The notes beneath the pieces are model-generated. The model saw only the letters and a program-made list of their open reading frames with translations, was not told the origin of the DNA and did no database searches. The position numbers and the translations under genes were made by a program. DNA of 64,000 bases from an uncultured Lachnospiraceae bacterium. GTDB taxonomy: Bacteria > Bacillota > Clostridia > Oscillospirales > CAG-272. Positions 611 to 63,211 of this stretch are shown piece after piece (position 1 is the stretch's first letter; each line of letters starts with the position of its first letter). The stretch spans positions 12,917-76,916 of the forward strand of contig CAZBAR010000004.1 of the NCBI GenBank assembly GCA_964490165.1. The letters run 5' to 3'.

Positions 611-3073
611 TTAATAATTGATAGTATAAGAACCGAACGCTATTTCTGTGGGCTCGGGAGTGCCGTCCTTTATTTCAGGTACTCTTTCTCCGGTAAGGAA
701 GAAGTTGTTTATTATGTCTCTGCTGCTCGCATTATAAGAGACCTTGGAGCCGCTTACAATACGGTAGACCTGTATAATAGGCGCCTGGTCAAAGGTTATA
801 GTTTCAGGAATTGAGAATACACCGGCATTGTCATACGGTCTGATGCCTTTTTCCTTAACATAGTTCCACATTGCGGTGCAGCGCTCCTCGTACAGCGCCT
901 TTGTCTCGGCGGTCGCTTTTTCGCCCGCGTAAACATCATTGTATACATAGGAGAGTCCGAGAAAATCAAAGAGATAAATTATTGTTTCAAGTCTTGCCTT
1001 GTACTCGGGCTTGTCAGCCAGCTCAAGCGCGGTGGTAAGAAGCGTTCTCATCTCCTCATAATGTGCTCTCATATAGTTGGGAGAGTACATATCGGCAGGC
1101 TTGTCAAAGTTTGAGATAAAGCAGGTTCCGCAGGTCTTAGCAGCCTCGTTCTGCATCAGGATGTACTGGAACAGCTGTTCATAGCCGTCGCCGTAGTACA
1201 TATAAAGGTATTCCTTCATATAGTCGCAGTACTGATCGAAGGTCATTTGGGGTTCCCACATCATCTTCATTACCAGATATGCCTTCAGTGTACCGAAGTT
1301 GTAGGTTCCGCCGCCGCCCTCGTAATAGATACCGCGAACATTAGCCTCGTTGTAAAGGAACTGAACATCGTAGTAGAGGTTGAGGATGTTAGGCATACCT
1401 ACCATCTGATAGCCGTACTGAACGCCGTAGTACCAGTACCACATTTCAGCACCGGTCTCTTTGCACAGCTCACCCCATGCGATAAGGGATGCATTCGTTT
1501 TAACGTTATTTTCCTTTTTATCGGGTCTCTGTCCCATGCAGGTTCCGCAGTCATCAGTGCCGAGATAGTGGTTGTTACAGCCCTGACCGCAGTAGAATAC
1601 GATAACGTTTTTGTCGGGCTTTACTGTTTTGGGTATATCATGGTTGTAGAGGATGCAGTGCACGCGCAAGCCGGCGTATTTTCCGTTGTCATATGTCTGA
1701 AGGTCTCTTGCAGCGCGGTTTGCGAGGTCGATATACAGACCGGAGGCACCCTCGCTTGCTGCCTTAACTCTGCACTTTGAGCAGGTGCAGTAGCTTTCAT
1801 TGTCGCACAGTGAGAAAGATATTGTCTTCTGACCTTCTTCAACGTATTTTCTTGCTCTGCCTGTAAAATCGTAGCAGGCAGAGCGCCATCCGTCACACAG
1901 CATATTGATAGTATCTATCATACCGTTATAAAGGTTTTTATAGCTTGATTCGGAGGAAGCGCAGGGCTGCCAGTTTAATGGATCAAGCTTGGGATCGGCA
2001 TTCCACTTTTCACGGCCCTCTGCAAGCTTTGCCGCATATTTGTCACTCAGGGGCATATTTTCATCAGTGGGCATTGTACCGAGGCTCATCTGCCAGTAAT
2101 AGTCATAGGAATGAGCATTGATGAACTGAGGACCGTAAAGGGTACCGAACTGTGCAGAATCGTTAGTATATATCTGTGTTCCGTTCATTCTTGAAGGGAG
2201 GTAGTATACCTGTGCGTTGTCTCCTTTGACGGTTTCTCCGCAGAATCTGAAGGTCATGGCAGGGATAACGATATCGGTATCAAGACCTTCAGGAATGTCC
2301 ACGGTTCTTGACTTGTAGATAAATGTGTGGTCGTTGTCATAGAAGCGGTAGCCGAGATAATCTTCAAGTATCTCGTAGATAGCGTACATATTACCTCTGT
2401 AGGTACCGTAAACATAAAGGCTGCCGTTTTCTACCTTGTACTGATATCCCTCAACGCCAAGCTCCGCACCGAAATTGTATTTTTTAAGTTCAGCTTCGGT
2501 AAGCTCATCTCGCTTGTCGGGATCTACCTCGGAGATTCTGGGGATCGAATTGAAGACGATCGCGTTACCCTCAGGCTCGCCGGTCTTGACCTCAAGATCA
2601 ACGCCTGTAGCAACTCTTATGTACTTTCTTGCGATCTCAGCCGCATAGGTAGCATTGTTGTTGCTTCCTTCGGGCTCGGGTGCATAAATGGTGAAGTTGG
2701 AAATATCAACACCGCCGATGGTAAGCTTTGCAACCTGATGGTTGTCGCCCAGCTCATCTGTCGTAATGGAATCTACCATAACGGCCTTGAGGTAAAATGA
2801 GTCCTTGGAGTTGATAACACCGTCGGCTGCAAGGTCAGCAGCTTCTGAGTTTACCGCTTCCTCAACACCCTCGCGGCCCAGAATGTAGCTCTTGATAAGA
2901 TTTGAGTCCTTCATATCGATCTCGCCGTCGCCGTTGAGGTCGCCCAGAGTGAAGGTGTCGTCATAGTCGAAATTCTGATTTGCTTCCAGCTTTGCCGCGC
3001 TTGAGACAACACTCAAGCTGCCGATCAGCATGAGCAGTGCAAGGCTGATAGATAACAGTCGTTTCATTTTCAT
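611..3073 (-). CDS. secreted N-terminal-dockerin / DUF4838-like (putative glycoside hydrolase-like) protein, paralog 1
   Basis: 820-aa ORF with a signal peptide (KRLLSISLALLMLIGSLSVVSSA). Duplicated dockerin Ca-loops DLNGDGEIDMKD and DLAADGVINSKD. Then a GH20b-like segment (EGYQYKVENGSLYVYGTYRGNMYAIYEILEDYLGYRFY) and a DUF4838-type CxCxxC motif (CDNESYCTCSKCR). The true start may be the second ATG at 3067. Confidence 0.85.
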   Translation of the reverse strand: MKMKRLLSISLALLMLIGSLSVVSSAAKLEANQNFDYDDTFTLGDLNGDGEIDMKDSNLIKSYILGREGVEEAVNSEAADLAADGVINSKDSFYLKAVMVDSITTDELGDNHQVAKLTIGGVDISNFTIYAPEPEGSNNNATYAAEIARKYIRVATGVDLEVKTGEPEGNAIVFNSIPRISEVDPDKRDELTEAELKKYNFGAELGVEGYQYKVENGSLYVYGTYRGNMYAIYEILEDYLGYRFYDNDHTFIYKSRTVDIPEGLDTDIVIPAMTFRFCGETVKGDNAQVYYLPSRMNGTQIYTNDSAQFGTLYGPQFINAHSYDYYWQMSLGTMPTDENMPLSDKYAAKLAEGREKWNADPKLDPLNWQPCASSESSYKNLYNGMIDTINMLCDGWRSACYDFTGRARKYVEEGQKTISFSLCDNESYCTCSKCRVKAASEGASGLYIDLANRAARDLQTYDNGKYAGLRVHCILYNHDIPKTVKPDKNVIVFYCGQGCNNHYLGTDDCGTCMGQRPDKKENNVKTNASLIAWGELCKETGAEMWYWYYGVQYGYQMVGMPNILNLYYDVQFLYNEANVRGIYYEGGGGTYNFGTLKAYLVMKMMWEPQMTFDQYCDYMKEYLYMYYGDGYEQLFQYILMQNEAAKTCGTCFISNFDKPADMYSPNYMRAHYEEMRTLLTTALELADKPEYKARLETIIYLFDFLGLSYVYNDVYAGEKATAETKALYEERCTAMWNYVKEKGIRPYDNAGVFSIPETITFDQAPIIQVYRIVSGSKVSYNASSRDIINNFFLTGERVPEIKDGTPEPTEIAFGSYTINY

Positions 3074-3240
3074 CTGTCCTTTGATAAGATTTTGATTGAA
3101 TTTTGCTTATATAGCAATTTAACATAATAATATCATATTGTAAATATAAATTCAAGGACTTTGTTTAATATGTTCAAACAGAGAACTATTTTTGTACATA
3201 ATAGTTATATAAATTGTCTTGCTTTTGGTTAAAACATAAA

Positions 3241-3268
3241 AGCAGGCGCTCCTCGGAGCGCCTGCTTC
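3241..3268 (-). terminator. intrinsic terminator downstream of paralog 2
   Basis: Hairpin AGCAGGCGCTCC-tcgg-(G)AGCGCCTGCT with an A-run on the plus side, which is a T-run on the minus strand. Confidence 0.7.
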
Positions 3269-3278
3269 AGTTTGTCTA

Positions 3279-5609
3279 TTAAATTCCGGGTTCTGTGCCG
3301 TTAAGGAAGAATTCGTTTATCACAGCACGGCGGCTTGCATCTGAATATACGTTTCCTTGTTTGTCAACTCCTCCGTATACCTGTACGATAGGGCAGATAT
3401 CAAAGTTGATAGTTGAGGGGAAGTAGTAATATCCGCTGTCGTCGAACGCATCAAAGTTCTTTGATCTTACGTAGTTCCACATCTCAGTATAGCGCTGCTC
3501 GTACAGTGCTCTGGTTTCCTCTGTGCCGTTTGTGTACCAGTCATGGTATACATAGGAGAGTCCAAGGAAGTCAAAGAGATAAAGCAAAGTCTTGAGACGG
3601 TCTATATGCTCAGGCTTTTCTGCCATATCAAGAGCGGTAGAAAGCAGTTTTCTCATTTCCTCGTAATTCGCTCTCATATAAGAGGGAGAGTACATATCAC
3701 CGGGACGGTCGAAGTTTGAGATAAAGCAGGTTCCGCAGGACTTTCCGGCGTCGTTCTGCATCAGGATGTACTGGAACAGCTGCTCATAGCCGTCACCGTA
3801 GTACATATACAGATATTCCTTCATATAGTCGCAGTACTTGTCAAAGGACATTGTGGGCTCCCACATCATCTTCATTGCAAGATACTCTTTGAGCTTGCGG
3901 AAATTATACGAGCGTCCGCCGCTTTCGTAGTAGATACCGCGAACGTTAGCCTCGTTGTAGAGGAACTTAATATCGTAGTAGAAGTTGAGAATATTGGGCA
4001 TACCTACAAGCACATAGTGATATGTTACGCCGTAGTACCAGTACCACATTTCAGCGCCTGTCTCTTTGCACATTTCGCCCCATGCTTTAAGGGACTCGGT
4101 TGTAATAACGTTGTTTTCCTTGTTAAGCTGACCCATGCAGGTTCCGCAGTCATCAGTGCCGAGATAGTGGTTGTTACAGCCCTGACCGCAGTAGAATACG
4201 ATAAGGTTCTTGTCAGGTCTTACGGTTTTGGGAATAGCGTGGTTATAGAGAATGCAGTGTACGCGCAAGCCGGCGTATTTTCCGTTGTCATATGTCTGAA
4301 GGTCTCTTACAGCGCGGTTGGCGAGGTCGATATACAGACCGGAGGCACCCTCGCTTGCTGCCTTGACTCTGCACTTAGAACAGGTGCAATAGCTTTCGTT
4401 GTCACACAGGGAGAAGGATATAGACTTCTGACCGTATACAACCTTTTCTCTTTGAGTTGTGCGGAACTGATAGAAGTAGTGGTTCCAGCCCTCGTCTATC
4501 ATTCTGATAGTGTCTATCATACCTTCGAAAAGCTTTTTATAGCTTGACTCGGAGGTAGCGCAGGGCTGCCAGTTATATTCGTCAAGCTTAGGATCGGCAG
4601 CCCACTTTTTCTCACCGTCTGCAATCTTTGCGTTGTACCTATCGTTAAGTTTCATTGAGTCATCGTCGGGCATTGTGCCGAGGCTCATTCTCCAGTAGTA
4701 GCCGAATGAATGTGCATTGATGAACTGGGGACCGTACAAAGAGCCGTAGAAGTCTTCGGAATATCCGTTTACCTGAGTGCCGTTCATACGGGAGGGGAAG
4801 TAGTATACCTCTGCATTGCCGCCTCTTACTCCTCCGCAGTATCTGAATCTCATAGCAGGAATGAATATTTCGCGGTCAAGCCCTTCGGGGATGTCTACTG
4901 TTCTTGTCTTGTAGATAAAAGTATAATCGCTGTCATAGAAGCGGTAGCCGAGATAGTTTTCAAGTATCTCGTAGATAGCGTACATATTGCCTCTGTAAGT
5001 ACCGTAAATGTAAAGACTGCCGTTTTCTACCTTATAGGTGTAGCCCTCTTCGCCCAGCTCATCGCCGAAATCGGAAGCGCGGGGAACTGAATTGAAAACG
5101 ATAGCATGACCTTCAGGCTCGCCGGTCTTGATCTGAAGATCAACTCTGGTAGCAACTCTTATGTACTTTCTTGCAATCTCAGCTGCATAAGTAGCGTTGT
5201 TATCGTTGCTGCCCTCGGGTGTGGGTGCATAAATTGAAAACTCGGAAATATCAACGCCGCCGATAGTAAGCTTTGCGATCTGCTTGTTGTCGCCCAGCTC
5301 ATCGGTCGTGATGGATTCAACCATAACGGCTTTGAGGTAATATGAGTCCTTGGAGTTGATAACACCGTCGGCTGCAAGGTCAGCGGCGTCTGTGTTTATC
5401 GCGTCCTCAGCACCCTCGCGGCCTAAAATATAGCTTTTGAGCAGGTTTGAGTCCTTCATATCGATCTCGCCGTCGCCGTTGAGGTCGCCCAGATCGAAGG
5501 TGTCATCATAGTCAAGATGCTGATCAACGTTCAGCGCTGCACTTGATAAGGAGGAAAGGCTTCCCACCAGCATAACAAGTGCAAGACATACAGATAACAG
5601 TTTTTTCAT
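3279..5609 (-). CDS. secreted N-terminal-dockerin / DUF4838-like protein, paralog 2
   Basis: The ORF extends to 5645. The preferred start is ATG at 5609 (MKKLLSVCLALVML), preceded by AAAGGAC with 8-nt spacing. Architecture matches paralog 1. Confidence 0.85.
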   Translation of the reverse strand: MKKLLSVCLALVMLVGSLSSLSSAALNVDQHLDYDDTFDLGDLNGDGEIDMKDSNLLKSYILGREGAEDAINTDAADLAADGVINSKDSYYLKAVMVESITTDELGDNKQIAKLTIGGVDISEFSIYAPTPEGSNDNNATYAAEIARKYIRVATRVDLQIKTGEPEGHAIVFNSVPRASDFGDELGEEGYTYKVENGSLYIYGTYRGNMYAIYEILENYLGYRFYDSDYTFIYKTRTVDIPEGLDREIFIPAMRFRYCGGVRGGNAEVYYFPSRMNGTQVNGYSEDFYGSLYGPQFINAHSFGYYWRMSLGTMPDDDSMKLNDRYNAKIADGEKKWAADPKLDEYNWQPCATSESSYKKLFEGMIDTIRMIDEGWNHYFYQFRTTQREKVVYGQKSISFSLCDNESYCTCSKCRVKAASEGASGLYIDLANRAVRDLQTYDNGKYAGLRVHCILYNHAIPKTVRPDKNLIVFYCGQGCNNHYLGTDDCGTCMGQLNKENNVITTESLKAWGEMCKETGAEMWYWYYGVTYHYVLVGMPNILNFYYDIKFLYNEANVRGIYYESGGRSYNFRKLKEYLAMKMMWEPTMSFDKYCDYMKEYLYMYYGDGYEQLFQYILMQNDAGKSCGTCFISNFDRPGDMYSPSYMRANYEEMRKLLSTALDMAEKPEHIDRLKTLLYLFDFLGLSYVYHDWYTNGTEETRALYEQRYTEMWNYVRSKNFDAFDDSGYYYFPSTINFDICPIVQVYGGVDKQGNVYSDASRRAVINEFFLNGTEPGI

Positions 5610-5662
5610 TGTTATTTGTCCTTTCATTTTTTGCTTTTGCGACAATGCCGCACATTAACATA

Positions 5663-5691
5663 ATGATAACATAATGGTGTTTATTTTGCAA
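5663..5691 (-). promoter_or_regulatory. sigma-70-type promoter of paralog 2
   Basis: Minus strand reads TTGCAA-17 nt-TATCAT. An almost identical block precedes paralog 3. Confidence 0.5.
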
Positions 5692-5770
5692 TATATTTTT
5701 GTGTAAATCATTCAAAGTGTGAGGCAGAATAATATAGAGAGGTCAAAAATTTGATCTTGTATTATGGATA

Positions 5771-5797
5771 AAAAACCGCCCTTTTCGGACGGTTTTT
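5771..5797 (-). terminator. intrinsic terminator downstream of paralog 3
   Basis: AAAAACCGCCC-ttttc-GGACGGTTTTT, an imperfect stem flanked by an A-run and a T-run. Confidence 0.6.
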
Positions 5798-5807
5798 ATA
5801 GGTTAAA

Positions 5808-8141
5808 TCAAATTCCGGGCTCTGTGCCGTTAAGGAAGAATTCGTTTATTGCAGCACGGCGGCTCGCATCGGAGGTTACGTTTCCGTCTGAGTATACATG
5901 ACCGTAAACCTGTACGATAGGACAAATATCAAAGTTGATAGTTGAAGGGAAGTAATATACATTTTCCGAGCCAAACACATCAAAATTACCTGCCCTGATA
6001 TAGTTCCACATATCAGTGTAGCGCTGCTCGTACAAAGCTCTTGTCTCGTCAGTACCGTTTGTGTACCAGTCGTGGTATACATAGGAAAGGCCGAGAAAGT
6101 CGAAGAGATAAAGCAAAGTTTCAAGTCTTTCCTTGTACTCAGGCTTATCTGCAAGTTCAAGCGCTTCTACAAGAAGCTTTCTCATTTCCTCGTAATTTGC
6201 TCTCATATAAGAGGGAGAGTACATATCGCCGGGACGGTCGAAGTTTGAGATAAAGCAGGTTCCGCACTGCTTTGCGCATTCATCCTGCATTTGTATATAC
6301 TTGAATATCTGCTCATAGCCATCGCCGTAATACATATAGAGGTATTCCTTCATATAGTCGCAATACTGCTCGAAGGTCATTTTGGGCTCCCACATCATCT
6401 TCATAGCGAGATACTCTTTCAGCTTGCCCAAGTTGTAGGGGCGTCCGCCGCCATCGTAGTAGATACCGCGTACATTAGCCTCGTTGTAGAGGAACTGAAT
6501 ATCGTAGAAAAGATTGAAAACATTAGGCATACCTACAAGCACATAGTGATATGTTACGGCATAGTACCAGTACCACATCTCAGCGCCTGTCTCTTTGCAC
6601 ATTTCACCCCATGCTTTAAGGGATTCGGTTGTGATAACGTTGTTTTCCTTGTTAAGCTGACCCAGGCAGGTTCCGCAGTCGTCAGTGCCGAGACAATGGT
6701 TGTTACAGCCCTGACCGCAGTAGAATACGATAAGGTTCTTGTCAGGTCTTACGGTCTTGGGAATAGCGTGATTATAGAGAATGCAGTGAACGCGCATGCC
6801 CTTATAAATACCGTCGTTATATGTCTGAAGATCTCTTACAGCGCGGTTGGCGAGGTCGATATACAGACCGGAGGCACCCTCGTTTGCTGCCTTTCCTCTG
6901 CACTTTGAGCAGGTGCAATAGCTTTCGTTGTCGCACAGGGAGAAGGACATAGACTTCTGACCGTATTCAACTTTTTCTCTTTGAGTTGTGCGGAACTGAT
7001 AGAAGGGGTGCTCCCATCCCTCGTCTATCATTCTGATAGTGTCTATCATACCTTCGAAAAGCTTTTTGTAGCTTGACTCGGAGGAAGCGCAGGGCTGCCA
7101 GTTATATGGATCGAGCTTTGGGTCTGCAGCCCATTTTTTCTGACCGTCTGCAAGCTTTGCCGCATATTTGTCACCCAGCTTCATGTCTTCATCAGTGGGC
7201 ATTGAGCCGAGGCTCATCTGCCAGTAAAAGTCATAGGAATGTGCATTCAAAAACTGAGGACCGTACAAAGAGCCGTAGACGTCTTCGGAATATCCGTTTA
7301 CCTGAGTTCCGTTCATTCTTGAGGGGAAGTAGTATACCTGTGCATTCTGACCTGCAACAAAGTCACCGCAGAATCTGAATCTCATGGCAGGGATAAATAT
7401 TTCGCGTTCAAGTCCTTCGGGGATGTCCACGATTCTTGTCTTGTAGATAAAAGTGTAATCGCTGTCATAGAAGCGGAAGCCGAGATAATCTTCGAGTATC
7501 TCGTAGATAGCGTACATATTGCCTCTGTAGGTACCGTAAATATAGAGGCTGCCGTTTTCTACCTTATAGGTATAACCTTCTTCGCCCAGCTCATCGCCGA
7601 AATCGGAAGCGCGGGGGATAGAGTTGAATACGATCGCATTCCCTGTCGGCTCTCCTGTTGTGATCTGAAGATCAACGCCTGTAGCAACTTTTATGTAATT
7701 TTTCGCGATCTCAGCTGCATAAGTAGCGTTGTTATTGAAGCTGTTCTCGGGTGTGGGTGCATAAATGGTGAAGTTTGAAATATCAACGCCGCCGATAGTA
7801 AGCTTTGCAACCTGATGGTTGTCGCCAAGCTCGTCGGTCGTGATAGATTCAACCATAACGGCTTTGAGGTAATATGAGTCTTTGGAGTTGATAACACCGT
7901 CAGCTGCAAGGTCTGCGGCTTCTGAGTTTATCGCGTCCTCAACACCCTCGCGTCCTAAAATATAGCTCTTGATCAGGTTTGAGTCCTTCATATCGATCTC
8001 GCCGTCGCCGTCGAGGTCGCCTAAAGTGAAGGTATCGTCATAATCAATATGCTGATTAGCGTTCAGCGCTGCGCTTGATAAGGTGGAGAGGCTTCCTATC
8101 AGCATAACAAGCGCAAGACATACAGATAACAGTTTTTTCAT
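5808..8141 (-). CDS. secreted N-terminal-dockerin / DUF4838-like protein, paralog 3
   Basis: The ORF extends to 8171. The preferred start is ATG at 8141 (MKKLLSVCLALVML). Same domain order and Cys motifs as the other paralogs. Confidence 0.85.
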   Translation of the reverse strand: MKKLLSVCLALVMLIGSLSTLSSAALNANQHIDYDDTFTLGDLDGDGEIDMKDSNLIKSYILGREGVEDAINSEAADLAADGVINSKDSYYLKAVMVESITTDELGDNHQVAKLTIGGVDISNFTIYAPTPENSFNNNATYAAEIAKNYIKVATGVDLQITTGEPTGNAIVFNSIPRASDFGDELGEEGYTYKVENGSLYIYGTYRGNMYAIYEILEDYLGFRFYDSDYTFIYKTRIVDIPEGLEREIFIPAMRFRFCGDFVAGQNAQVYYFPSRMNGTQVNGYSEDVYGSLYGPQFLNAHSYDFYWQMSLGSMPTDEDMKLGDKYAAKLADGQKKWAADPKLDPYNWQPCASSESSYKKLFEGMIDTIRMIDEGWEHPFYQFRTTQREKVEYGQKSMSFSLCDNESYCTCSKCRGKAANEGASGLYIDLANRAVRDLQTYNDGIYKGMRVHCILYNHAIPKTVRPDKNLIVFYCGQGCNNHCLGTDDCGTCLGQLNKENNVITTESLKAWGEMCKETGAEMWYWYYAVTYHYVLVGMPNVFNLFYDIQFLYNEANVRGIYYDGGGRPYNLGKLKEYLAMKMMWEPKMTFEQYCDYMKEYLYMYYGDGYEQIFKYIQMQDECAKQCGTCFISNFDRPGDMYSPSYMRANYEEMRKLLVEALELADKPEYKERLETLLYLFDFLGLSYVYHDWYTNGTDETRALYEQRYTDMWNYIRAGNFDVFGSENVYYFPSTINFDICPIVQVYGHVYSDGNVTSDASRRAAINEFFLNGTEPGI

Positions 8142-8188
8142 TGTTATTTGTCCTTTCGTTTTTTGCGGCAATGCCGCACATTAGCATA

Positions 8189-8217
8189 ATGATAACATAA
8201 TGATGTCTGTTTTGCAA
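8189..8217 (-). promoter_or_regulatory. sigma-70-type promoter of paralog 3
   Basis: Minus strand reads TTGCAA-17 nt-TATCAT. The block is near-identical to 5663..5691. Confidence 0.5.
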
Positions 8218-8263
8218 TATATTTTTGTATAAATTATTCAAAATTTTGGTCTTGTATTACGGA

Positions 8264-8293
8264 TAAAAAACCGCCCTTTCGGGCGGTCTTTTT
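8264..8293 (-). terminator. intrinsic terminator downstream of paralog 4
   Basis: AAAAAACCGCCC-tttc-GGGCGGTcTTTTT. Confidence 0.7.
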
Positions 8294-8302
8294 AAGTGTA
8301 AA

Positions 8303-10633
8303 TTAAATTCCGGGTTCTGTGCCGTTAATGAAAAATTCGTTTATTGCAGCACGGCGGCTTGCATCTGAAGATATGTTTCCATGTTTGTCAACTTGACCGT
8401 AAACCTGTAAGATGGGACAAATATCAAAGTTTATTTCTTCAGGGAAGTAGTACACATTCTCGGCGTCAAACATATCAAAATCACCTGCGCTGATATAATT
8501 CCACATATCAGTGTAGCGCTGCTCATACAGTGCTCGTGTCTCCTCTGTGCCGTTTGTGTACCAGTCGTGGTATACATAGGAAAGGCCGAGGAAGTCGAAG
8601 AGATAAAGCAGGGTGCTGACTCTCTCTATATGCTCAGGCTTTTCTGCCAGCTCAAGTGCCTTTGCAAGAAGAGTTCTCATTTCATCATAATGTGCTCTCA
8701 TATAAGAGGGAGAGTACATATCACCGGGACGGTCAAAGTTTGAGATAAAGCAGGTTCCGCACTGCTTTGCGCATTCATCCTGCATTTGTATATACTTGAA
8801 TATCTGCTCGTAGCCGTCGCCGTAATACATATACAAATATTCCTTAAGGTGATCGCAGTATTTGTCAAAGGACATTGTGGGTTCCCACAGCATCTTCATA
8901 GCGAGATACTGCTTAAGATTGCGGAAGTTATAATCACGTCCGCCGCTTTCATAGTAGATACCCTTAACGCCTGCGTCATTATAAAGGAACTGAATGTCGT
9001 AGTAGAGATTGAGTATATTAGGCATTCCCACAAGCACATAGTGGTACATTACGGCGTATTCCCAGAACCACATTTCTGCGCCTGACTCTTCACAGATCTT
9101 GCTCCAGGTTTTAATTGATGTATTGGATTCAATATTGTTGCTGCCGTACTGACCAAAGCAGTTGCCGCAGTCCTCTGTTCCTAGGTGGTGATTGTTACAG
9201 CCCTGACCGCAGTATATAACTATCAGTCCCTCGTCAGGTCTTACGGTATCAGGTATCTGGTGATTGTAAAGGATAGTATGTACACGAAGATTTGCATATT
9301 TTCCGCCGTCATACTCACGCAGTGCCTTCATTGCACGGTTTGCAGCATCGATATACAGACCTGAATAGCCTTCTTTTGCTGCCTTGCCTCTGCATTTTGA
9401 ACAGGTGCAGTTGTTTCCGTTATCGCAGATCGAGAAGGATATTGATTTTTGACCGTAATCGACATACTCTTTAATGGTGGTTGTAAAGCTGTAGCCGGGC
9501 GAATGCCAAGCGTTTTCAAGCATATTAACGGTTTCCAGCATACCGTCAATAAGCTCGTTAAAGCTGGAGGTTGTGGACATACAGGGCTGCCAGACCAGAT
9601 TGGGATCTTTGGCATTTACTTTGATCTTTAGCTTTTCAAGACCGTTTTTAACCTTGTAGTCGTATTTTTGAGCCAGAGTCAGGCTGTCGTCATCGGGCCA
9701 GTCGCCGTTTTTCATTTCCCAGTAGTAGTCAAATGAATGTGCATTCAAAAACTGCGGACCGTACTCAGTGCCGTAGCGCTCCTCGTCCCAGCTGTATATT
9801 TGTGTGCCGTTCATTCTTGACGGGAAATACCATATCTGCGGATCGTCCTCGCATACATATCCGCAATACCTGAATTTCAGGGCAGGAATAAATATTTCCC
9901 GTTCAAATCCCTCAGGAATATCTACGGCTCTCTTTTTATATACAAATGTATGGGTGCTGTCATAGAAACGGAAGCCGAGATAATCTTCGAGTATCTCATA
10001 GATAGCGTACATATTGCCTCTGTATGTACCGTATACATACAAACTGCCGTTTTTTACCTTATAGGTATAGCCTTCTTCGCCCAGCTCATCGCCGAATTCG
10101 GAAGCGCGGGGAACAGAGTTGAATACGATCGCGTTGCCTGTCGGTTCACCGGTCGTGATCTGAAGATCAACGCCTGTAGCAACTCTTATATACTTTCTTG
10201 CAAGTTCTGCAGCATAAGTGGCGTTGTTATTGCTTCCCTCAGGTTCGGGTGCATAAATGGTGAAGTTTGAAATATCAACGCCGCCGATAGTAAGCTTTGC
10301 GACCTGATGGTTGTCGCCAAGCTCATCAGAAGTAATATCGCCTACTAAAAGAGCTTTGAGATAGAAAGAATCTTTAGAATTGATAACACTGTCCGCCGCG
10401 AGATCGGCAGCGTCTGTAATTACCTTTTCTTCAATGTCTGTTCTGCCCAAAATATAGCTTTTCATAAGGCTTGAATCCTTCAGGTCTACCTTGCCGTCGC
10501 CGTCAAGGTCGCCTAAAGTGAAGGTGTCATCATAGTCAAGATGCTGATTCAGATTCAGCGCTGCGCTTGAAACTGTGACGAGACTTCCCAGCAGCATAAA
10601 AAGTGAAAGACCTACAGATAACAGTTTTTTCAT
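8303..10633 (-). CDS. secreted N-terminal-dockerin / DUF4838-like protein, paralog 4 (most divergent)
   Basis: 776 aa. Signal peptide, dockerin loops DLDGDGKVDLKD and DLAADSVINSKD, and the same body and Cys clusters (CDNGNNCTCSKCR; CGQGCNNHHLGTEDCGNC). Confidence 0.85.
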   Translation of the reverse strand: MKKLLSVGLSLFMLLGSLVTVSSAALNLNQHLDYDDTFTLGDLDGDGKVDLKDSSLMKSYILGRTDIEEKVITDAADLAADSVINSKDSFYLKALLVGDITSDELGDNHQVAKLTIGGVDISNFTIYAPEPEGSNNNATYAAELARKYIRVATGVDLQITTGEPTGNAIVFNSVPRASEFGDELGEEGYTYKVKNGSLYVYGTYRGNMYAIYEILEDYLGFRFYDSTHTFVYKKRAVDIPEGFEREIFIPALKFRYCGYVCEDDPQIWYFPSRMNGTQIYSWDEERYGTEYGPQFLNAHSFDYYWEMKNGDWPDDDSLTLAQKYDYKVKNGLEKLKIKVNAKDPNLVWQPCMSTTSSFNELIDGMLETVNMLENAWHSPGYSFTTTIKEYVDYGQKSISFSICDNGNNCTCSKCRGKAAKEGYSGLYIDAANRAMKALREYDGGKYANLRVHTILYNHQIPDTVRPDEGLIVIYCGQGCNNHHLGTEDCGNCFGQYGSNNIESNTSIKTWSKICEESGAEMWFWEYAVMYHYVLVGMPNILNLYYDIQFLYNDAGVKGIYYESGGRDYNFRNLKQYLAMKMLWEPTMSFDKYCDHLKEYLYMYYGDGYEQIFKYIQMQDECAKQCGTCFISNFDRPGDMYSPSYMRAHYDEMRTLLAKALELAEKPEHIERVSTLLYLFDFLGLSYVYHDWYTNGTEETRALYEQRYTDMWNYISAGDFDMFDAENVYYFPEEINFDICPILQVYGQVDKHGNISSDASRRAAINEFFINGTEPGI

Positions 10634-10744
10634 AATTGTTTATCCTTTCTTATTTTTTGGCAATGCGCCATACTTCAAAACAATAATAACATAAATGCAA
10701 GCCGCTTTCAATATGATTTTGTGTAAAATATTAAAAAATTTGCT

Positions 10745-10830
10745 ATTGTGGGAATGTACTTGGTCAGTAACATGCAAGCTGCGAAATTCTTTTTGTGCAG
10801 TTTGCTGTTTCTGCGGACTTTTTCTACAAC
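10745..10830 (+). repeat. partial copy (right end) of intergenic repeat family A
   Basis: TGGTCAG..GCGAAATTCTTTTTGTGCAGTTTGCTGTTTCTGCGGACTTTTTCTACAAC aligns with the right ~70 nt of the full copy at 53495..53719. Confidence 0.6.
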
Positions 10831-10831
10831 T

Positions 10832-10860
10832 AAAAAACCGCCCCTTGCAGGCGGTTTTTT
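10832..10860. terminator. bidirectional intrinsic terminator (serves the E1 gene)
   Basis: AAAAAACCGCC-ccttgca-GGCGGTTTTTT, 12 nt beyond the stop at 10872. Confidence 0.7.
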
Positions 10861-10871
10861 ATAGTTATTTA

Positions 10872-32128: not shown

Positions 32129-32163
32129 AATGATCTCCATTCCGCCGTCCTGCGGCGGTATAA

Positions 32164-32465
32164 GTCGAAAAGTCGAAAAAAACAGCAAGCAGGATTGAGT
32201 TTTTGCCGTTTTTTATTGTTCTGCTGCTTATATTTATCTTTTTCGACAGCCTGAATTATTATAATTGAGTTTGTCGAAAAACCTAACGGTTTTTTCGACA
32301 GAAAGTTCCGTGCGCTCGCGCCGTCGCGCCTCGAAGCTACGCTTCTCGACACTCGCAGAACTGCAAGGTGTGGGCTGGCGGCGGTGTATGTCCGCCTTGC
32401 CCACGGATTTTTATTTGTAATTGTTTACGCATTCATTTTTGTAATACTCATTACTTTTCCGACAG
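32164..32465. repeat. cluster of GTCGAAAAA / TTTTTCGACAG inverted-repeat motifs (family-A end-like) between aroB and aroA
   Basis: Motif copies occur at 32164, 32172, 32239 (inverted), 32272 and 32290 (inverted). Degenerate copies occur at 32342 and 32455. The pair 32272/32290 forms an 11-bp hairpin. Confidence 0.6.
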
Positions 32466-51715: not shown

Positions 51716-52000
51716 AGGCCATACACCCGAAGATCGGGAAAGCGTCGCACACGACGCCGTGTCAACTGCTCAGGGCAGGCGACCCTGCGGCACATCAGCT
51801 AAACTGCTTAATGCTGCTTGGTTCCCCACCTGACATGGTTCACAGCCGCTGATTGCGCTGGAACCCGCCCATCAACACAGTTGAACACGGCACAGACTGT
51901 ACAAAGCAAACCCTCAAAACGGGAATACCACCCCTGCATACAGCGGATTTCAGGTACAGGAGGCCGCTGAACTCCCGGCTGGTATGACCTTACCCTGCGG
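51716..52000 (-). ncRNA. ffs: signal recognition particle RNA, large Bacillus-type with Alu domain (ends approximate)
   Basis: The minus strand contains the domain IV core CATGTCAGGTGGGGAACCAAGCAGCATTAAGCAG and the Alu-domain-like GGGAGTTCAGCGGCCTCCTGTACCTGAAATCCGCTGTATGCAGGGG. The 5' CCGCAGGGTAAGGTCATAC pairs with the 3' GTATGGCCTTTCCCTACGG. It sits upstream of dnaX, as in B. subtilis. Confidence 0.85.
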
Positions 52001-52108: not shown

Positions 52109-52390
52109 AACTTTCTTTTTCGTACCAAAAAGAAAGTTACAAAGAAAAGGGTATCCAAGAGGGAGGTATCCCTCTTGGAAAACTCCCTCTGACTTCCCTG
52201 CGGGAAGTATACGTTAGTATCAATCAAACGATATTGGGGCCATTGACCACTAACGCTCTGCTGTAAATCTCGTTATGCTTCCTCCGGAAGCTATAAGGAA
52301 AGTGGGATTTTCAAGGGAGAAAACGCAGTTGTCTCCCTTGAATGATTTTCTTTCGAGCTTTCTTTTTTCACAAAAAGAAAGCGACAAAAA
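52109..52390 (+). repeat. intergenic multi-hairpin repeat family B, copy 1 (longest)
   Basis: Bounded by hairpins CTTTCTTTTT-cgtacc-AAAAAGAAAG and CTTTCTTTTTT-cac-AAAAAGAAAG. Alignable with 57889..58096 and, inverted, with 55436..55560. Confidence 0.7.
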
Positions 52391-52863: not shown

Positions 52864-52931
52864 ATAACCGTAGGGAGCAAGGCTTAAATAAAGACTTGCA
52901 GCCTGAGTTTTAGAAAGGCATGGTTAGGATT

Positions 52932-53459
52932 ATGAAGATCACCATTAACGCACGCAGCAAGGTAAACGTTGACCGCGCTCTAAGCGATCACATTGAGAAG
53001 AAGCTTGCCAAGTTCGACAAGTTCTTCCCCAGAGAAGCAGAGGCAGCAGTAAAGCTTTCACGGGTGCGCGACATCGAGCGCGTTGAGGTGACGATATCGG
53101 CAGACTCACTGCTTCTTCGCAGTGAGGACGAAAGTTCTACCTTTATGAATGCGCTTGACTGTTGTATGTATTCACTGGAGAGACAGATAAGAAAGAATAA
53201 AACAAGGCTTGCAAAGAAGCTGAGAGATAATATACACATACCTGAGTATGAGACAGATGATGTGCCGGAGGAGGGCGAATTTGTTTTCCGCAAGAAGTCC
53301 TTCCCCATAAAGCCCATGACAGCCGAAGAGGCGGTGCTGCAAATGAATCTTATAGGACATGAATTTTTCGTATATAAGGATATAGACAGCGGCGAGACCT
53401 GCGCGGTCTATAAGCGCCACGACGGCGCATACGGATTGATCGTGCCGGAAAATACGTAA
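52932..53459 (+). CDS. hpf: ribosome hibernation-promoting factor (long form)
   Basis: MKITINARSKVNVDRALSDHIEKKLAKFDKFF.. and a C-terminal dimerisation domain (KPMTAEEAVLQMNLIGHEFFVYKD). Confidence 0.88.
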   Translation: MKITINARSKVNVDRALSDHIEKKLAKFDKFFPREAEAAVKLSRVRDIERVEVTISADSLLLRSEDESSTFMNALDCCMYSLERQIRKNKTRLAKKLRDNIHIPEYETDDVPEEGEFVFRKKSFPIKPMTAEEAVLQMNLIGHEFFVYKDIDSGETCAVYKRHDGAYGLIVPENT

Positions 53460-53469
53460 TCAGATGAAG

Positions 53470-53494
53470 AGTCGGGAAGCTTTGCTTCCCGGCT
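53470..53494 (+). other. hpf terminator hairpin, copy 1 (separated from its T-tract by the repeat insertion)
   Basis: AGTCGGGAAGC-tttg-CTTCCCGGCT is identical to 53720..53744 but is followed by CAGTCTGTCG rather than a T-run. Confidence 0.7.
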
Positions 53495-53719
53495 CAGTCT
53501 GTCGAAAAACTAAATGGCAGTAGCAAAATAACTAAAAGTTTTGGTCAAGCTTTTTCAAAAGCTTGCGGATTTTTAAGGCAGAGCCTTAAATCGCGCTCCG
53601 CAGAGCGCGAAATTCCTATGACTTCACGGAGTCCAGAGGGTTACCTCTGGTCGCGGCTCGCAAGCCGCGAAATCCCTTTTGTGAAGTTTGCTATTTCTGC
53701 GGACTTTTTCGACAACCTC
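53495..53719 (+). repeat. intergenic multi-hairpin repeat family A, full copy 1
   Basis: Ends CTGTCGAAAAA (53499) and TTTTTCGACAA (53705). Five internal hairpins at 53546-65, 53573-89, 53592-609, 53633-50 and 53653-68. Alignable over its full length with the inverted copy at 62987..63211. Confidence 0.75.
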
Positions 53720-53750
53720 AGTCGGGAAGCTTTGCTTCCCGGCTTTTTAA
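53720..53750 (+). terminator. hpf terminator hairpin, copy 2, with T-tract
   Basis: AGTCGGGAAGC-tttg-CTTCCCGGCT followed by TTTTAA. Confidence 0.7.
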
Positions 53751-53823
53751 TATTGCGGCTATTGACGGTACAATCAAAGTGTGGTACTATTTATATAAAT
53801 AATATCAGGTAGGTTTTCAAGGT

Positions 53824-57888: not shown

Positions 57889-58096
57889 AACTTTCTTTTG
57901 CTACCCAAAAGAAAGTTACAAAGAAAAGGGTATCCAAGAGGGAAGAATCCCTCTTGGAAAACTCCCTCTTACTTCCCTGCGGGAAGTACACCTTAGTTTC
58001 AAGCAAACAATATTGAGGCTATTGACCACTAACGATTTGCTGTAAACTTCGTAATGCATTCTCAGAAAGCAAAAAGAAAGCGTAAAATTAACTTCT
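57889..58096 (+). repeat. intergenic multi-hairpin repeat family B, copy 2 (internally deleted relative to copy 1)
   Basis: AACTTTCTTTTGCTACCCAAAAGAAAGTTACAAAGAAAAGGGTATCCAAGAGGGAAGAATCCCTCTTGGAAAACTCCCTCTTACTTCCCTGCGGGAAGT... is collinear with 52109..52390. Confidence 0.7.
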
Positions 58097-62986: not shown

Positions 62987-63211
62987 CAAACTGTCGAAAA
63001 AGTCCACAGAAATAGCAAAATGCACAAAAGGGATTTCGCTCTCTGAGGAGAGCGACCAGAGGTTCCCTCTGGACTCCGGTGCGGCTTAGGCTTTTCGCCC
63101 TCTGCGGAGGGCGATTTAGGGCGTTGCCCTAAAAACCCACAAGCTTTTGAAAAAGCTTGACCAAAACTTTTAGTCATTTTGCTACAGACATTTAGTTTTT
63201 CGACAGTCTGT
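62987..63211 (-). repeat. intergenic multi-hairpin repeat family A, full copy 2 (inverted relative to copy 1)
   Basis: Ends CTGTCGAAAAA (62991) and TTTTTCGACAG (63196). The reverse complement aligns end to end with 53495..53719. Flanked by hairpins at 62959..62986 and 63212..63235. Confidence 0.75.

Follow-up and report, generated by a model that had tools for sequence, protein, structure and literature searches.

The 225-nt insert that lies behind hpf is very probably a MITE of the IS1182 family, which entered the terminator hairpin of this gene by structure-directed insertion with duplication of the whole stem-loop. The 25-bp duplication around it is the normal footprint of this IS1182 clade. 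Since the termini of the element match IS1182-family inverted repeats, the mechanism is that of a family already known rather than a novel one; the element is likewise not of a new class, and hairpin targeting by IS1182 relatives has already been published. Three features of an IS1182 MITE are present in the insert, namely matching (similar) ends, no coding capacity, and a hairpin as target with the corresponding duplication behaviour. Coordinates given without a locus name refer to the window, the whole 64-kb stretch of DNA that was analysed.

The hpf ORF (52920–53459, plus strand, with an alternative start at 52932) specifies a ribosome hibernation factor, and the identical protein has Pfam matches to Ribosomal_S30AE and S30AE_C (Ribosom_S30AE_C). 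Its TAA stop codon ends at 53459, and the hairpin AGTCGGGAAGCTTTGCTTCCCGGCT begins 10 nt downstream. This 25-mer folds into an 11-bp stem, including one G-T pair, with the loop TTT, and it occurs exactly twice in the 64 kb, both times on the plus strand and as an exact match: at 53470–53494, the target-site duplication to the left of the MITE, and at 53720–53744, to its right. A search allowing up to three mismatches gave no third site in the window (chance expectation 0). Only the right copy is followed by a T-run (TTTTT, 53745–53749), and of the two it is the only one called in the terminator scan. The right hairpin and its T-run are the sole intact intrinsic terminator of hpf, and the terminator of this gene was the target of the insertion. 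An earlier note, made from the sequence alone, had claimed an exact 25-bp hairpin on either side of a 225-nt element, a T-run behind the second copy only, and the return of the hpf terminator once one copy and the element are removed. The first two claims are borne out by the sequence, the mismatch-tolerant search and the terminator scan, and the third by taking out 53495–53744, which leaves hpf, one hairpin and the T-run.

As the left hairpin has no T-run, read-through into the MITE is likely, and transcription of hpf now probably passes this hairpin and ends within the MITE or at the right hairpin. The terminator scan also predicts two terminator-like sites within the element (53546–53565 and 53651–53670), each with a T-rich tail after it. 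No empty hpf site was found, because the flanking proteins form singleton clusters: this applies to both the hpf and the MATE proteins, and the only other public contig with the exact hpf protein (L001, 1.2 kb) stops 25 nt into the MITE (L001 1105–1169). The latter case illustrates how these repeats break short-read assemblies.

The element itself (family A copy 1; 53495–53719, plus strand) is non-coding and contains five internal stem-loops. Its left inverted repeat starts with CAGTCTGTCGAAAAACT (longer left end CAGTCTGTCGAAAAACTAAATGGCAGTAGCAAAAT), and its right end reads ...GGACTTTTTCGACAACCTC (longer form ...TTTGCTATTTCTGCGGACTTTTTCGACAACCTC), with GAGGTTGTCGAAAAAGT as the reverse complement. 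Over about 30 nt, the two ends are imperfect inverted repeats of each other. The fold is very stable (-140 kcal/mol, z = -12.7), and the only ORF is a single 64-aa read-through frame. A search with Rfam 15, which includes the raiA motif known near hpf/raiA genes, gave no match to the element at gathering threshold in a search of the whole window, where the SRP RNA and one tRNA are the only matches; at E ≤ 10 nothing relevant appears in 53400–53800, the best scores being 10–16 bits vs gathering scores of 50–175. Homology to an IS1182 transposase is absent from the 64-kb window, as judged by tblastn with IS1182 ORFs. The imperfect terminal inverted repeats described in the earlier note are real (CAGTCTGTCGAAAAACT vs GAGGTTGTCGAAAAAGT), as are the five internal stem-loops, although GAAAT follows two of these rather than "several". 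Its statement that there are no intron or transposase features holds in so far as no intron match and no transposase ORF exist, but the termini match IS1182-family inverted repeats.

The ends define a large superfamily. One genome per species was scanned for CTGTCGAAAAA followed, after 180–210 nt, by TTTTTCGACA. This gave at least 117 loci, mostly in Oscillospiraceae and Butyricicoccaceae, of which about 18 are evident chance matches in other phyla. The genera among the matches listed are Pseudoflavonifractor, Flavonifractor, Dysosmobacter, Agathobaculum, Intestinimonas, Sporobacter, Oscillibacter and Butyricicoccus. Many subfamilies can be told apart by interiors that are unrelated to one another (the largest comprises at least 41 copies), and what is conserved across the superfamily is the ends: (T)CAGG-CTGTCGAAAAA ... 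TTTTTCGACA-AGCTG(A). No earlier account of such a MITE superfamily in Oscillospiraceae came up in a limited literature search, and nothing specific was found on the combination of MITE, terminator and duplication.

The hairpin duplication seen at hpf is the rule in this superfamily. The set evaluated consists of 96 deduplicated elements from Clostridia-labelled loci of other genomes, among the matches listed. A flanking direct repeat is present in 71 of these, exact in 58 and with one or two mismatches in 13; the others have different hairpins on either side (13/96), a hairpin on one side (11/96) or none (1/96). A looser count gives at least 67 copies with exact repeats of at least 14 nt, ranging from 14 to 38 nt (median 26). 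As a control, mismatched pairs of left and right flanks never score above 12, while 78 of the 133 raw matches listed score at least 14. The duplicated sequence is unlike at every site, and almost all of these sequences fold as hairpins; in the largest subfamily, a site-specific duplicated hairpin surrounds almost every copy. At three loci (L022, L030 and L100) old duplications have diverged with compensatory changes, and both hairpins are retained.

The geometry of the sites is regular. The duplication tracks the stem, and the junction offsets are constant: the modal position of the repeat border is 4 nt upstream of CTGTCG and 5 nt downstream of CGACA. At their 5' end the duplicated hairpins leave 0–3 bases unpaired, at their 3' end usually none. 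Among the matches listed, 79 of 81 elements have the 3' end of an ORF (at least 100 codons) no more than 150 nt away (random positions, 43%). Their orientation relative to T-runs and A-runs is mixed, with no preference, and the duplication includes the A/T tracts where these can pair. What is targeted is thus the palindrome as such, rather than the boundary of hairpin and T-tract. The site between hairpin and T-tract and the sense orientation, which the earlier note had listed as features of the element, are therefore incidental, either orientation being found across the superfamily. Its main proposal of structure-directed insertion at terminators, with duplication of the whole stem-loop, is supported by the 71/96 copies with duplications and by the 79/81 near ORF 3' ends.

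Some loci contain more than one element. L039 (~35–930), L008 (777–1303) and L037 (after 216) carry arrays of the form hairpin-MITE-hairpin-MITE, with one hairpin sequence per array. These arrays fit repeated insertion into targets that were already duplicated, by which the terminator hairpin has been multiplied. Their layout is reminiscent of repeat-spacer arrays. At L060 (element at 3864–4075) the flanking hairpins have identical stems with the loop reverse-complemented (CTGCTTCAG vs CTGAAGCAG), so that one copy is a flipped palindrome; processing of a cruciform or hairpin, or an inversion, may lie behind this.

The designation of family A as a repeat family is confirmed by two further copies in the window. 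Copy 2 (62987–63210, minus strand) is full, 85% identical to copy 1 and located downstream of a gene end; a 5'-truncated copy (about 10774–10833, plus strand, 3' end only) has a terminator hairpin directly after it (~10834–10864). The truncated copy sits immediately past the last of four tandem units of ~2.5 kb (~840–10740; 60–92% identical, spacing 2492–2605), presumably paralogous genes on the minus strand. Degenerate remnants of another superfamily member (32160–32400, plus strand) have the end motifs TTTTTCGACAGCCTG and include a 33-nt IR/IR' mini-hairpin, TTGTCGAAAAACC-TAAC-GGTTTTTTCGACAG; they lie between a hairpin at 32143–32159 and a terminator near 32372–32412. A different hairpin-rich repeat family, "B" (AACTTTCTTTT...AAAGAAAGTT and others), is present at 52117–52300 and 57896–58079 (86% identical), one copy adjoining the SRP RNA gene (51719–51987, minus strand).

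Outside the window, a metagenome scan for family A gave one further copy only (L139), and a single locus among the matches listed, L113 from a MAG labelled Lachnospiraceae, has its 5' half in common with family A. This nearest relative has a 23–24-nt duplication, AAACAGCGCTTTTAAGCGCTGTG. Checking of the flanks of related copies, as the earlier note proposed, comes out in its favour, with duplicated hairpins at 71/96 sites in the superfamily. Within family A itself, only two of the four full copies (copy 1 and L113) have matching flanks. Copy 2 is flanked by AGAGAGCTGCATATGCAGCTCTCT (63235–63212), without a T-run, and by AGAGTGTGCAGCGTATGCTGTACACTCT (62986–62959), followed by TTTTTT. In copy 2 and L139 the hairpins on either side are unlike, with the outermost pairs alone in common (AGAG...CTCT; AAAGGC...GCCTTT). 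These flanks are probably old, diverged duplications or recombinants, and divergence under selection for pairing and recombination between copies are both possible routes. Within the element, 8 of 72 predicted pairs change in compensating fashion among the three family A copies, and the internal stems stay paired. One stem is wholly different in each (53656–53675 in copy 1; 63053–63034, minus strand, in copy 2; ~326–307, minus strand, in L139). Its arms are GCGGCT/AGCCGC, GCTCTC/GAGAGC and GACCGC/GCGGTC, always a perfect hairpin between the conserved GGTC and GAAATCCC, while copy 2 and L139 are nearly identical outside it. The change looks like a single-step hairpin replacement rather than gradual drift.

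The link to the IS1182 family comes from four full-length ISs with hairpin duplications of 16–29 nt and the termini (C)AGRYTG.TGA.AAAC. Three were typed by NCBIfam or PGAP, and the fourth (L140) by a Pfam DUF772 match alone. The first, annotated by PGAP as "IS1182 family transposase", is carried by Clostridium sporogenes plasmid pRSJ11_1 (L130). It has an exact 29-nt hairpin duplication, GAGCATGTGTTTTAAATTAACACTTGCTC, of which the left copy is preceded by an A-run and the right copy followed by a T-run; the IS starts with AGGCTGTTGATAAACATATTTTGTCAACAGCCT and ends with ...GTTCTTGAACAATCT. At L138 the duplicated hairpin is 22 nt and exact (GAATACTAAAATTTTAGTATTC; ends AGGCTGTTGACAAAC and, as reverse complement, AGATTGTTGATAAAG), and at L132 it is ~16 nt with one mismatch (AGAGGTTTCTGCCTCT and AGAGGCTTCTGCCTCT; ends CAGACTGTTGACATACA and, as reverse complement, CAGGTTGTTGAAAAACT). 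The IS at L140, in a genome of 65% GC, has an exact 21-nt duplication (AAGCCCGCCGGTCGCGGGCTT; ends CAGATTGCTGACAAACC and, as reverse complement, CAGATTGCTGACGAACC). Two additional contigs of 60% GC (L141 and L142) consist of the IS only and start with CAGGCTGTAGACAAAATCC. The IS ends in L130, L132 and L138 read (C)AGRCTGTTGAYAWAC and (C)AGRTTGTTSAWRAAC. The MITE ends CAGTCTGTCGAAAAACT and GAGGTTGTCGAAAAAGT (the latter reverse-complemented) fit this terminal motif, being similar to those of the ISs retrieved and identical to none. The best pair is the right end of the window MITE and the right end CAGGTTGTTGAAAAACT of L132, with 14 of 17 positions identical.

Against NCBIfam NF033551 (IS1182 family transposase), the ORFs at L132 and L138 align with profile positions 3–189 and 257–488 at 207–220 bits per ORF half; combined, the halves exceed the 270-bit cut-off. 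These ORFs also contain the Pfam domains DUF772 and DDE_Tnp_1_6, and a frameshift within an A-run divides them. For this IS1182 clade, the break in the transposase comes after ~196–202 aa at an A-run (KKKKK) (L130 2348–3735; P0001–P0120), and hundreds of database entries consist of the 196–202-aa N-terminal ORF alone, a pattern that suggests programmed frameshifting and not decay. The IS itself starts with a perfect local hairpin, in which the left IR is paired with its complement (AGGCTGTTGATAAACA-TAT-TTTGTCAACAGCCT), at L130 2222–2254, L138 2639–2671 and L132 ~2894–2926. In the largest Oscillospiraceae MITE subfamily the left end likewise folds on itself as an IR/IR' hairpin. This means that the element's own end resembles its preferred target.

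An IS1182 transposase was found neither in the 64-kb window nor among the at least 117 MITE loci by tblastn with IS1182 ORFs, and all-against-all clustering of the ORFs of the MITE loci gave no transposase. All MITE loci were also searched for matching ends or matching hairpins 0.6–5 kb apart; the resulting candidates for an autonomous element (L012, L018, L029, L049 and L074) have ordinary genes inside. No full-length IS with exact CTGTCGAAAAA ends was found, the nearest ends being CAGGCTGTAGACAAAATCC (L141) and CAGGTTGTTGAAAAACT (L132). A scan of viral contigs for the left end gave only chance matches in phage coding sequence. BLAST of plasmids with the IRL/IRR hairpin gave one weak match, to a Vescimonas record with other repeats, and no cognate IS. 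In PLSDB that record (L127, NZ_AP023416.1 290488–330521) is listed as the "plasmid" pMM35_01 (861 kb) of Vescimonas fastidiosa; as it carries dnaA, dnaN, recF, gyrB, gyrA, rpmH and rnpA, it looks like a chromosome or a chromosome fragment. A different repeat (GTAGGGGC...-type palindromes) abounds between its genes. The neighbourhoods of aph(3')-IIIa, tried as a route to IS1182 elements, contain ISL3 and IS6 elements instead.

As to mechanism, the published cruciform model most likely applies, in its 5'-feet branch. The transposase would choose its target by DNA structure and not by sequence, so that any inverted repeat able to form a hairpin or cruciform would qualify; in practice, these would mostly be intrinsic terminators. 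The two 3' ends of the transposon, presumably mobilised in trans, would join the two strands at the feet of the extruded stem-loop. With the ends joined at the feet on both strands, the stagger would equal the length of the stem-loop, and gap repair would copy the entire hairpin to either side of the element. At hpf the outcome would be the order hairpin, MITE, hairpin and T-run.

Other origins of such a structure have been considered, beginning with a structured ncRNA or 3'-UTR module, in which the inverted repeats are the closing RNA helix and the flanking hairpins an upstream stabiliser and the module's own terminator. Such a module would account for the very stable fold (z = -12.7 and -11.9), the compensatory change at 8/72 predicted pairs in three copies, the sense orientation of copies 1 and 2 downstream of genes, and the retention of both hairpins through compensatory change at L022, L030 and L100. 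It is nevertheless very unlikely, as Rfam gives no match either at gathering threshold or at E ≤ 10, the family has many dispersed copies with conserved termini and interiors that are unrelated between subfamilies, the flanking hairpins are exact, site-specific duplicates, the elements are in mixed orientation relative to terminators, and IS1182 elements that bear a transposase have these ends and duplications too. Against the IS1182 MITE stand the negative searches for a transposase, for a full-length IS with exact ends and for an empty hpf site, the unlike flanking hairpins of two of the four full family A copies, the deletion of part of the hairpin by IS1272, and the internal stems being kept paired, which a purely selfish element would not obviously need. 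The duplication could also be independent of the insertion, having arisen by replication slippage or template switching at a palindrome, or by selection that restored the terminator after a duplication-free insertion. Palindromes are prone to slippage, some copies have non-identical hairpins, and at L060 the loop is inverted between copies. However, at dozens of independent sites the repeats adjoin the element with a constant offset (modal 4 and 5 nt), the same constancy is found in the four full-length ISs from distant taxa, and no tandem hairpin was seen without an element, which makes an independent origin very unlikely.

A hairpin-rich, extragenic element found at gene 3' ends in many copies per genome might also be of the REP/REPIN type or derived from IS200/IS605, moved as single-stranded DNA by a Y1 (HUH) transposase (RAYT/TnpA). 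Elements of the HUH/Y1 kind insert beside a short specific sequence and are not known to make a target duplication. The present element does duplicate its target, with 14–38 nt of unrelated sequence repeated in 71 of 96 copies, and its termini match a DDE family, so that a REP/RAYT or IS200/IS605 origin must be considered highly improbable. Group IIC introns insert just behind terminator hairpins, and a retroelement or group IIC-intron-like element homing to terminators would therefore be found at such a site. This reading is effectively refuted by the lack of an intron RNA in Rfam and of an RT ORF, the size of only 225 nt, the DDE-type terminal inverted repeats and the duplicated hairpin; retrohoming is not known to duplicate a hairpin.

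In the IS1182 MITE, the target hairpin rather than the enzyme determines the length of the duplication, making this a transposon whose target is chosen by DNA structure, and the ~70 natural duplications constrain the cruciform model with respect to the stem feet, the offset (0–3 nt) and the lack of an orientation preference. For the host, such elements land almost only in terminators (safe havens); a functional terminator persists after the insertion, and the 3' UTRs of genes like hpf become longer. Many assembly breaks and repeat families in the genomes of gut Oscillospiraceae find their explanation in the superfamily as well, and a terminator-seeking insertion tool is a possible use. A wider proposal can be offered tentatively. 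A large, cross-phylum clade of IS1182 DDE transposases may read DNA shape alone, attacking the 5' feet of an extruded cruciform (or hairpins at replication forks) with the stem-loop as the ruler of the duplication; its MITE derivatives may have colonised, duplicated and in places multiplied the terminators of gut Oscillospiraceae, with hairpin copies and MITE stems then kept by selection. If true, these elements mould the architecture of 3' UTRs and terminators, and represent a natural, sequence-independent, terminator-seeking insertion system.

For the IS1182 family, ISfinder reportedly gives direct repeats of 0–60 bp. The four full-length ISs are like the window element in terminal motif, in the choice of a hairpin or terminator as target and in the duplication of about the whole stem-loop; unlike it, they are ~1.6 kb (vs 225 nt without a transposase), and the interior of the window element is unrelated. 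Some IS1182 members target palindromes, according to Siguier et al. 2015 as cited in PMC4923244 and PMC5678879. IS1272 and TnSha1, IS1182-family elements of staphylococci, insert into hairpins, many of them RNA-seq-confirmed terminators, independently of sequence and in both orientations (PMC4923244). The likeness to the window element and its relatives extends to the lack of primary-sequence specificity in a hairpin target, multiple insertions per hairpin and both orientations. The difference is that IS1272 deletes or replaces part of the hairpin and leaves no duplication (PMC4923244, PMC5678879), while the window element duplicates it entire. Attack on an extruded cruciform has been proposed by Wan et al., and the 5'-feet branch of their model duplicates the stem-loop (PMC5678879, Fig. 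13). In the searchable literature, whole-hairpin duplication by IS1182 relatives appears only as this one branch of a model and, reportedly, within the direct-repeat lengths given by ISfinder.

With bacterial MITEs such as Correia, RUP, BOX, bcr1 and MITEAba12, the element shares its short, non-coding and highly structured nature, terminal inverted repeats, many intergenic copies, transcription into neighbouring mRNAs and mobilisation in trans by the transposase of a cognate IS, the last two presumed for the element at hpf. Those and other such MITEs have short, fixed duplications (2–9 bp) at sequence-defined sites, in contrast to the variable 14–38 nt set here by target structure. Group IIC introns and the REP-targeting ISs (IS1397/ISKpn1, ISPa11, IS110/IS621 types) also prefer extragenic hairpins or terminators as safe havens, but they use retrohoming or DEDD and other transposases, are not known to duplicate the hairpin and have sequence or guide-RNA specificity. 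By analogy only, the outcome resembles spacer integration by Cas1-Cas2 and the action of casposases, where a repeat, often palindromic, is copied in full through two staggered strand transfers at its borders; there, however, the enzymes are unrelated, the unit is of fixed length, and the site is set by a leader or by sequence.
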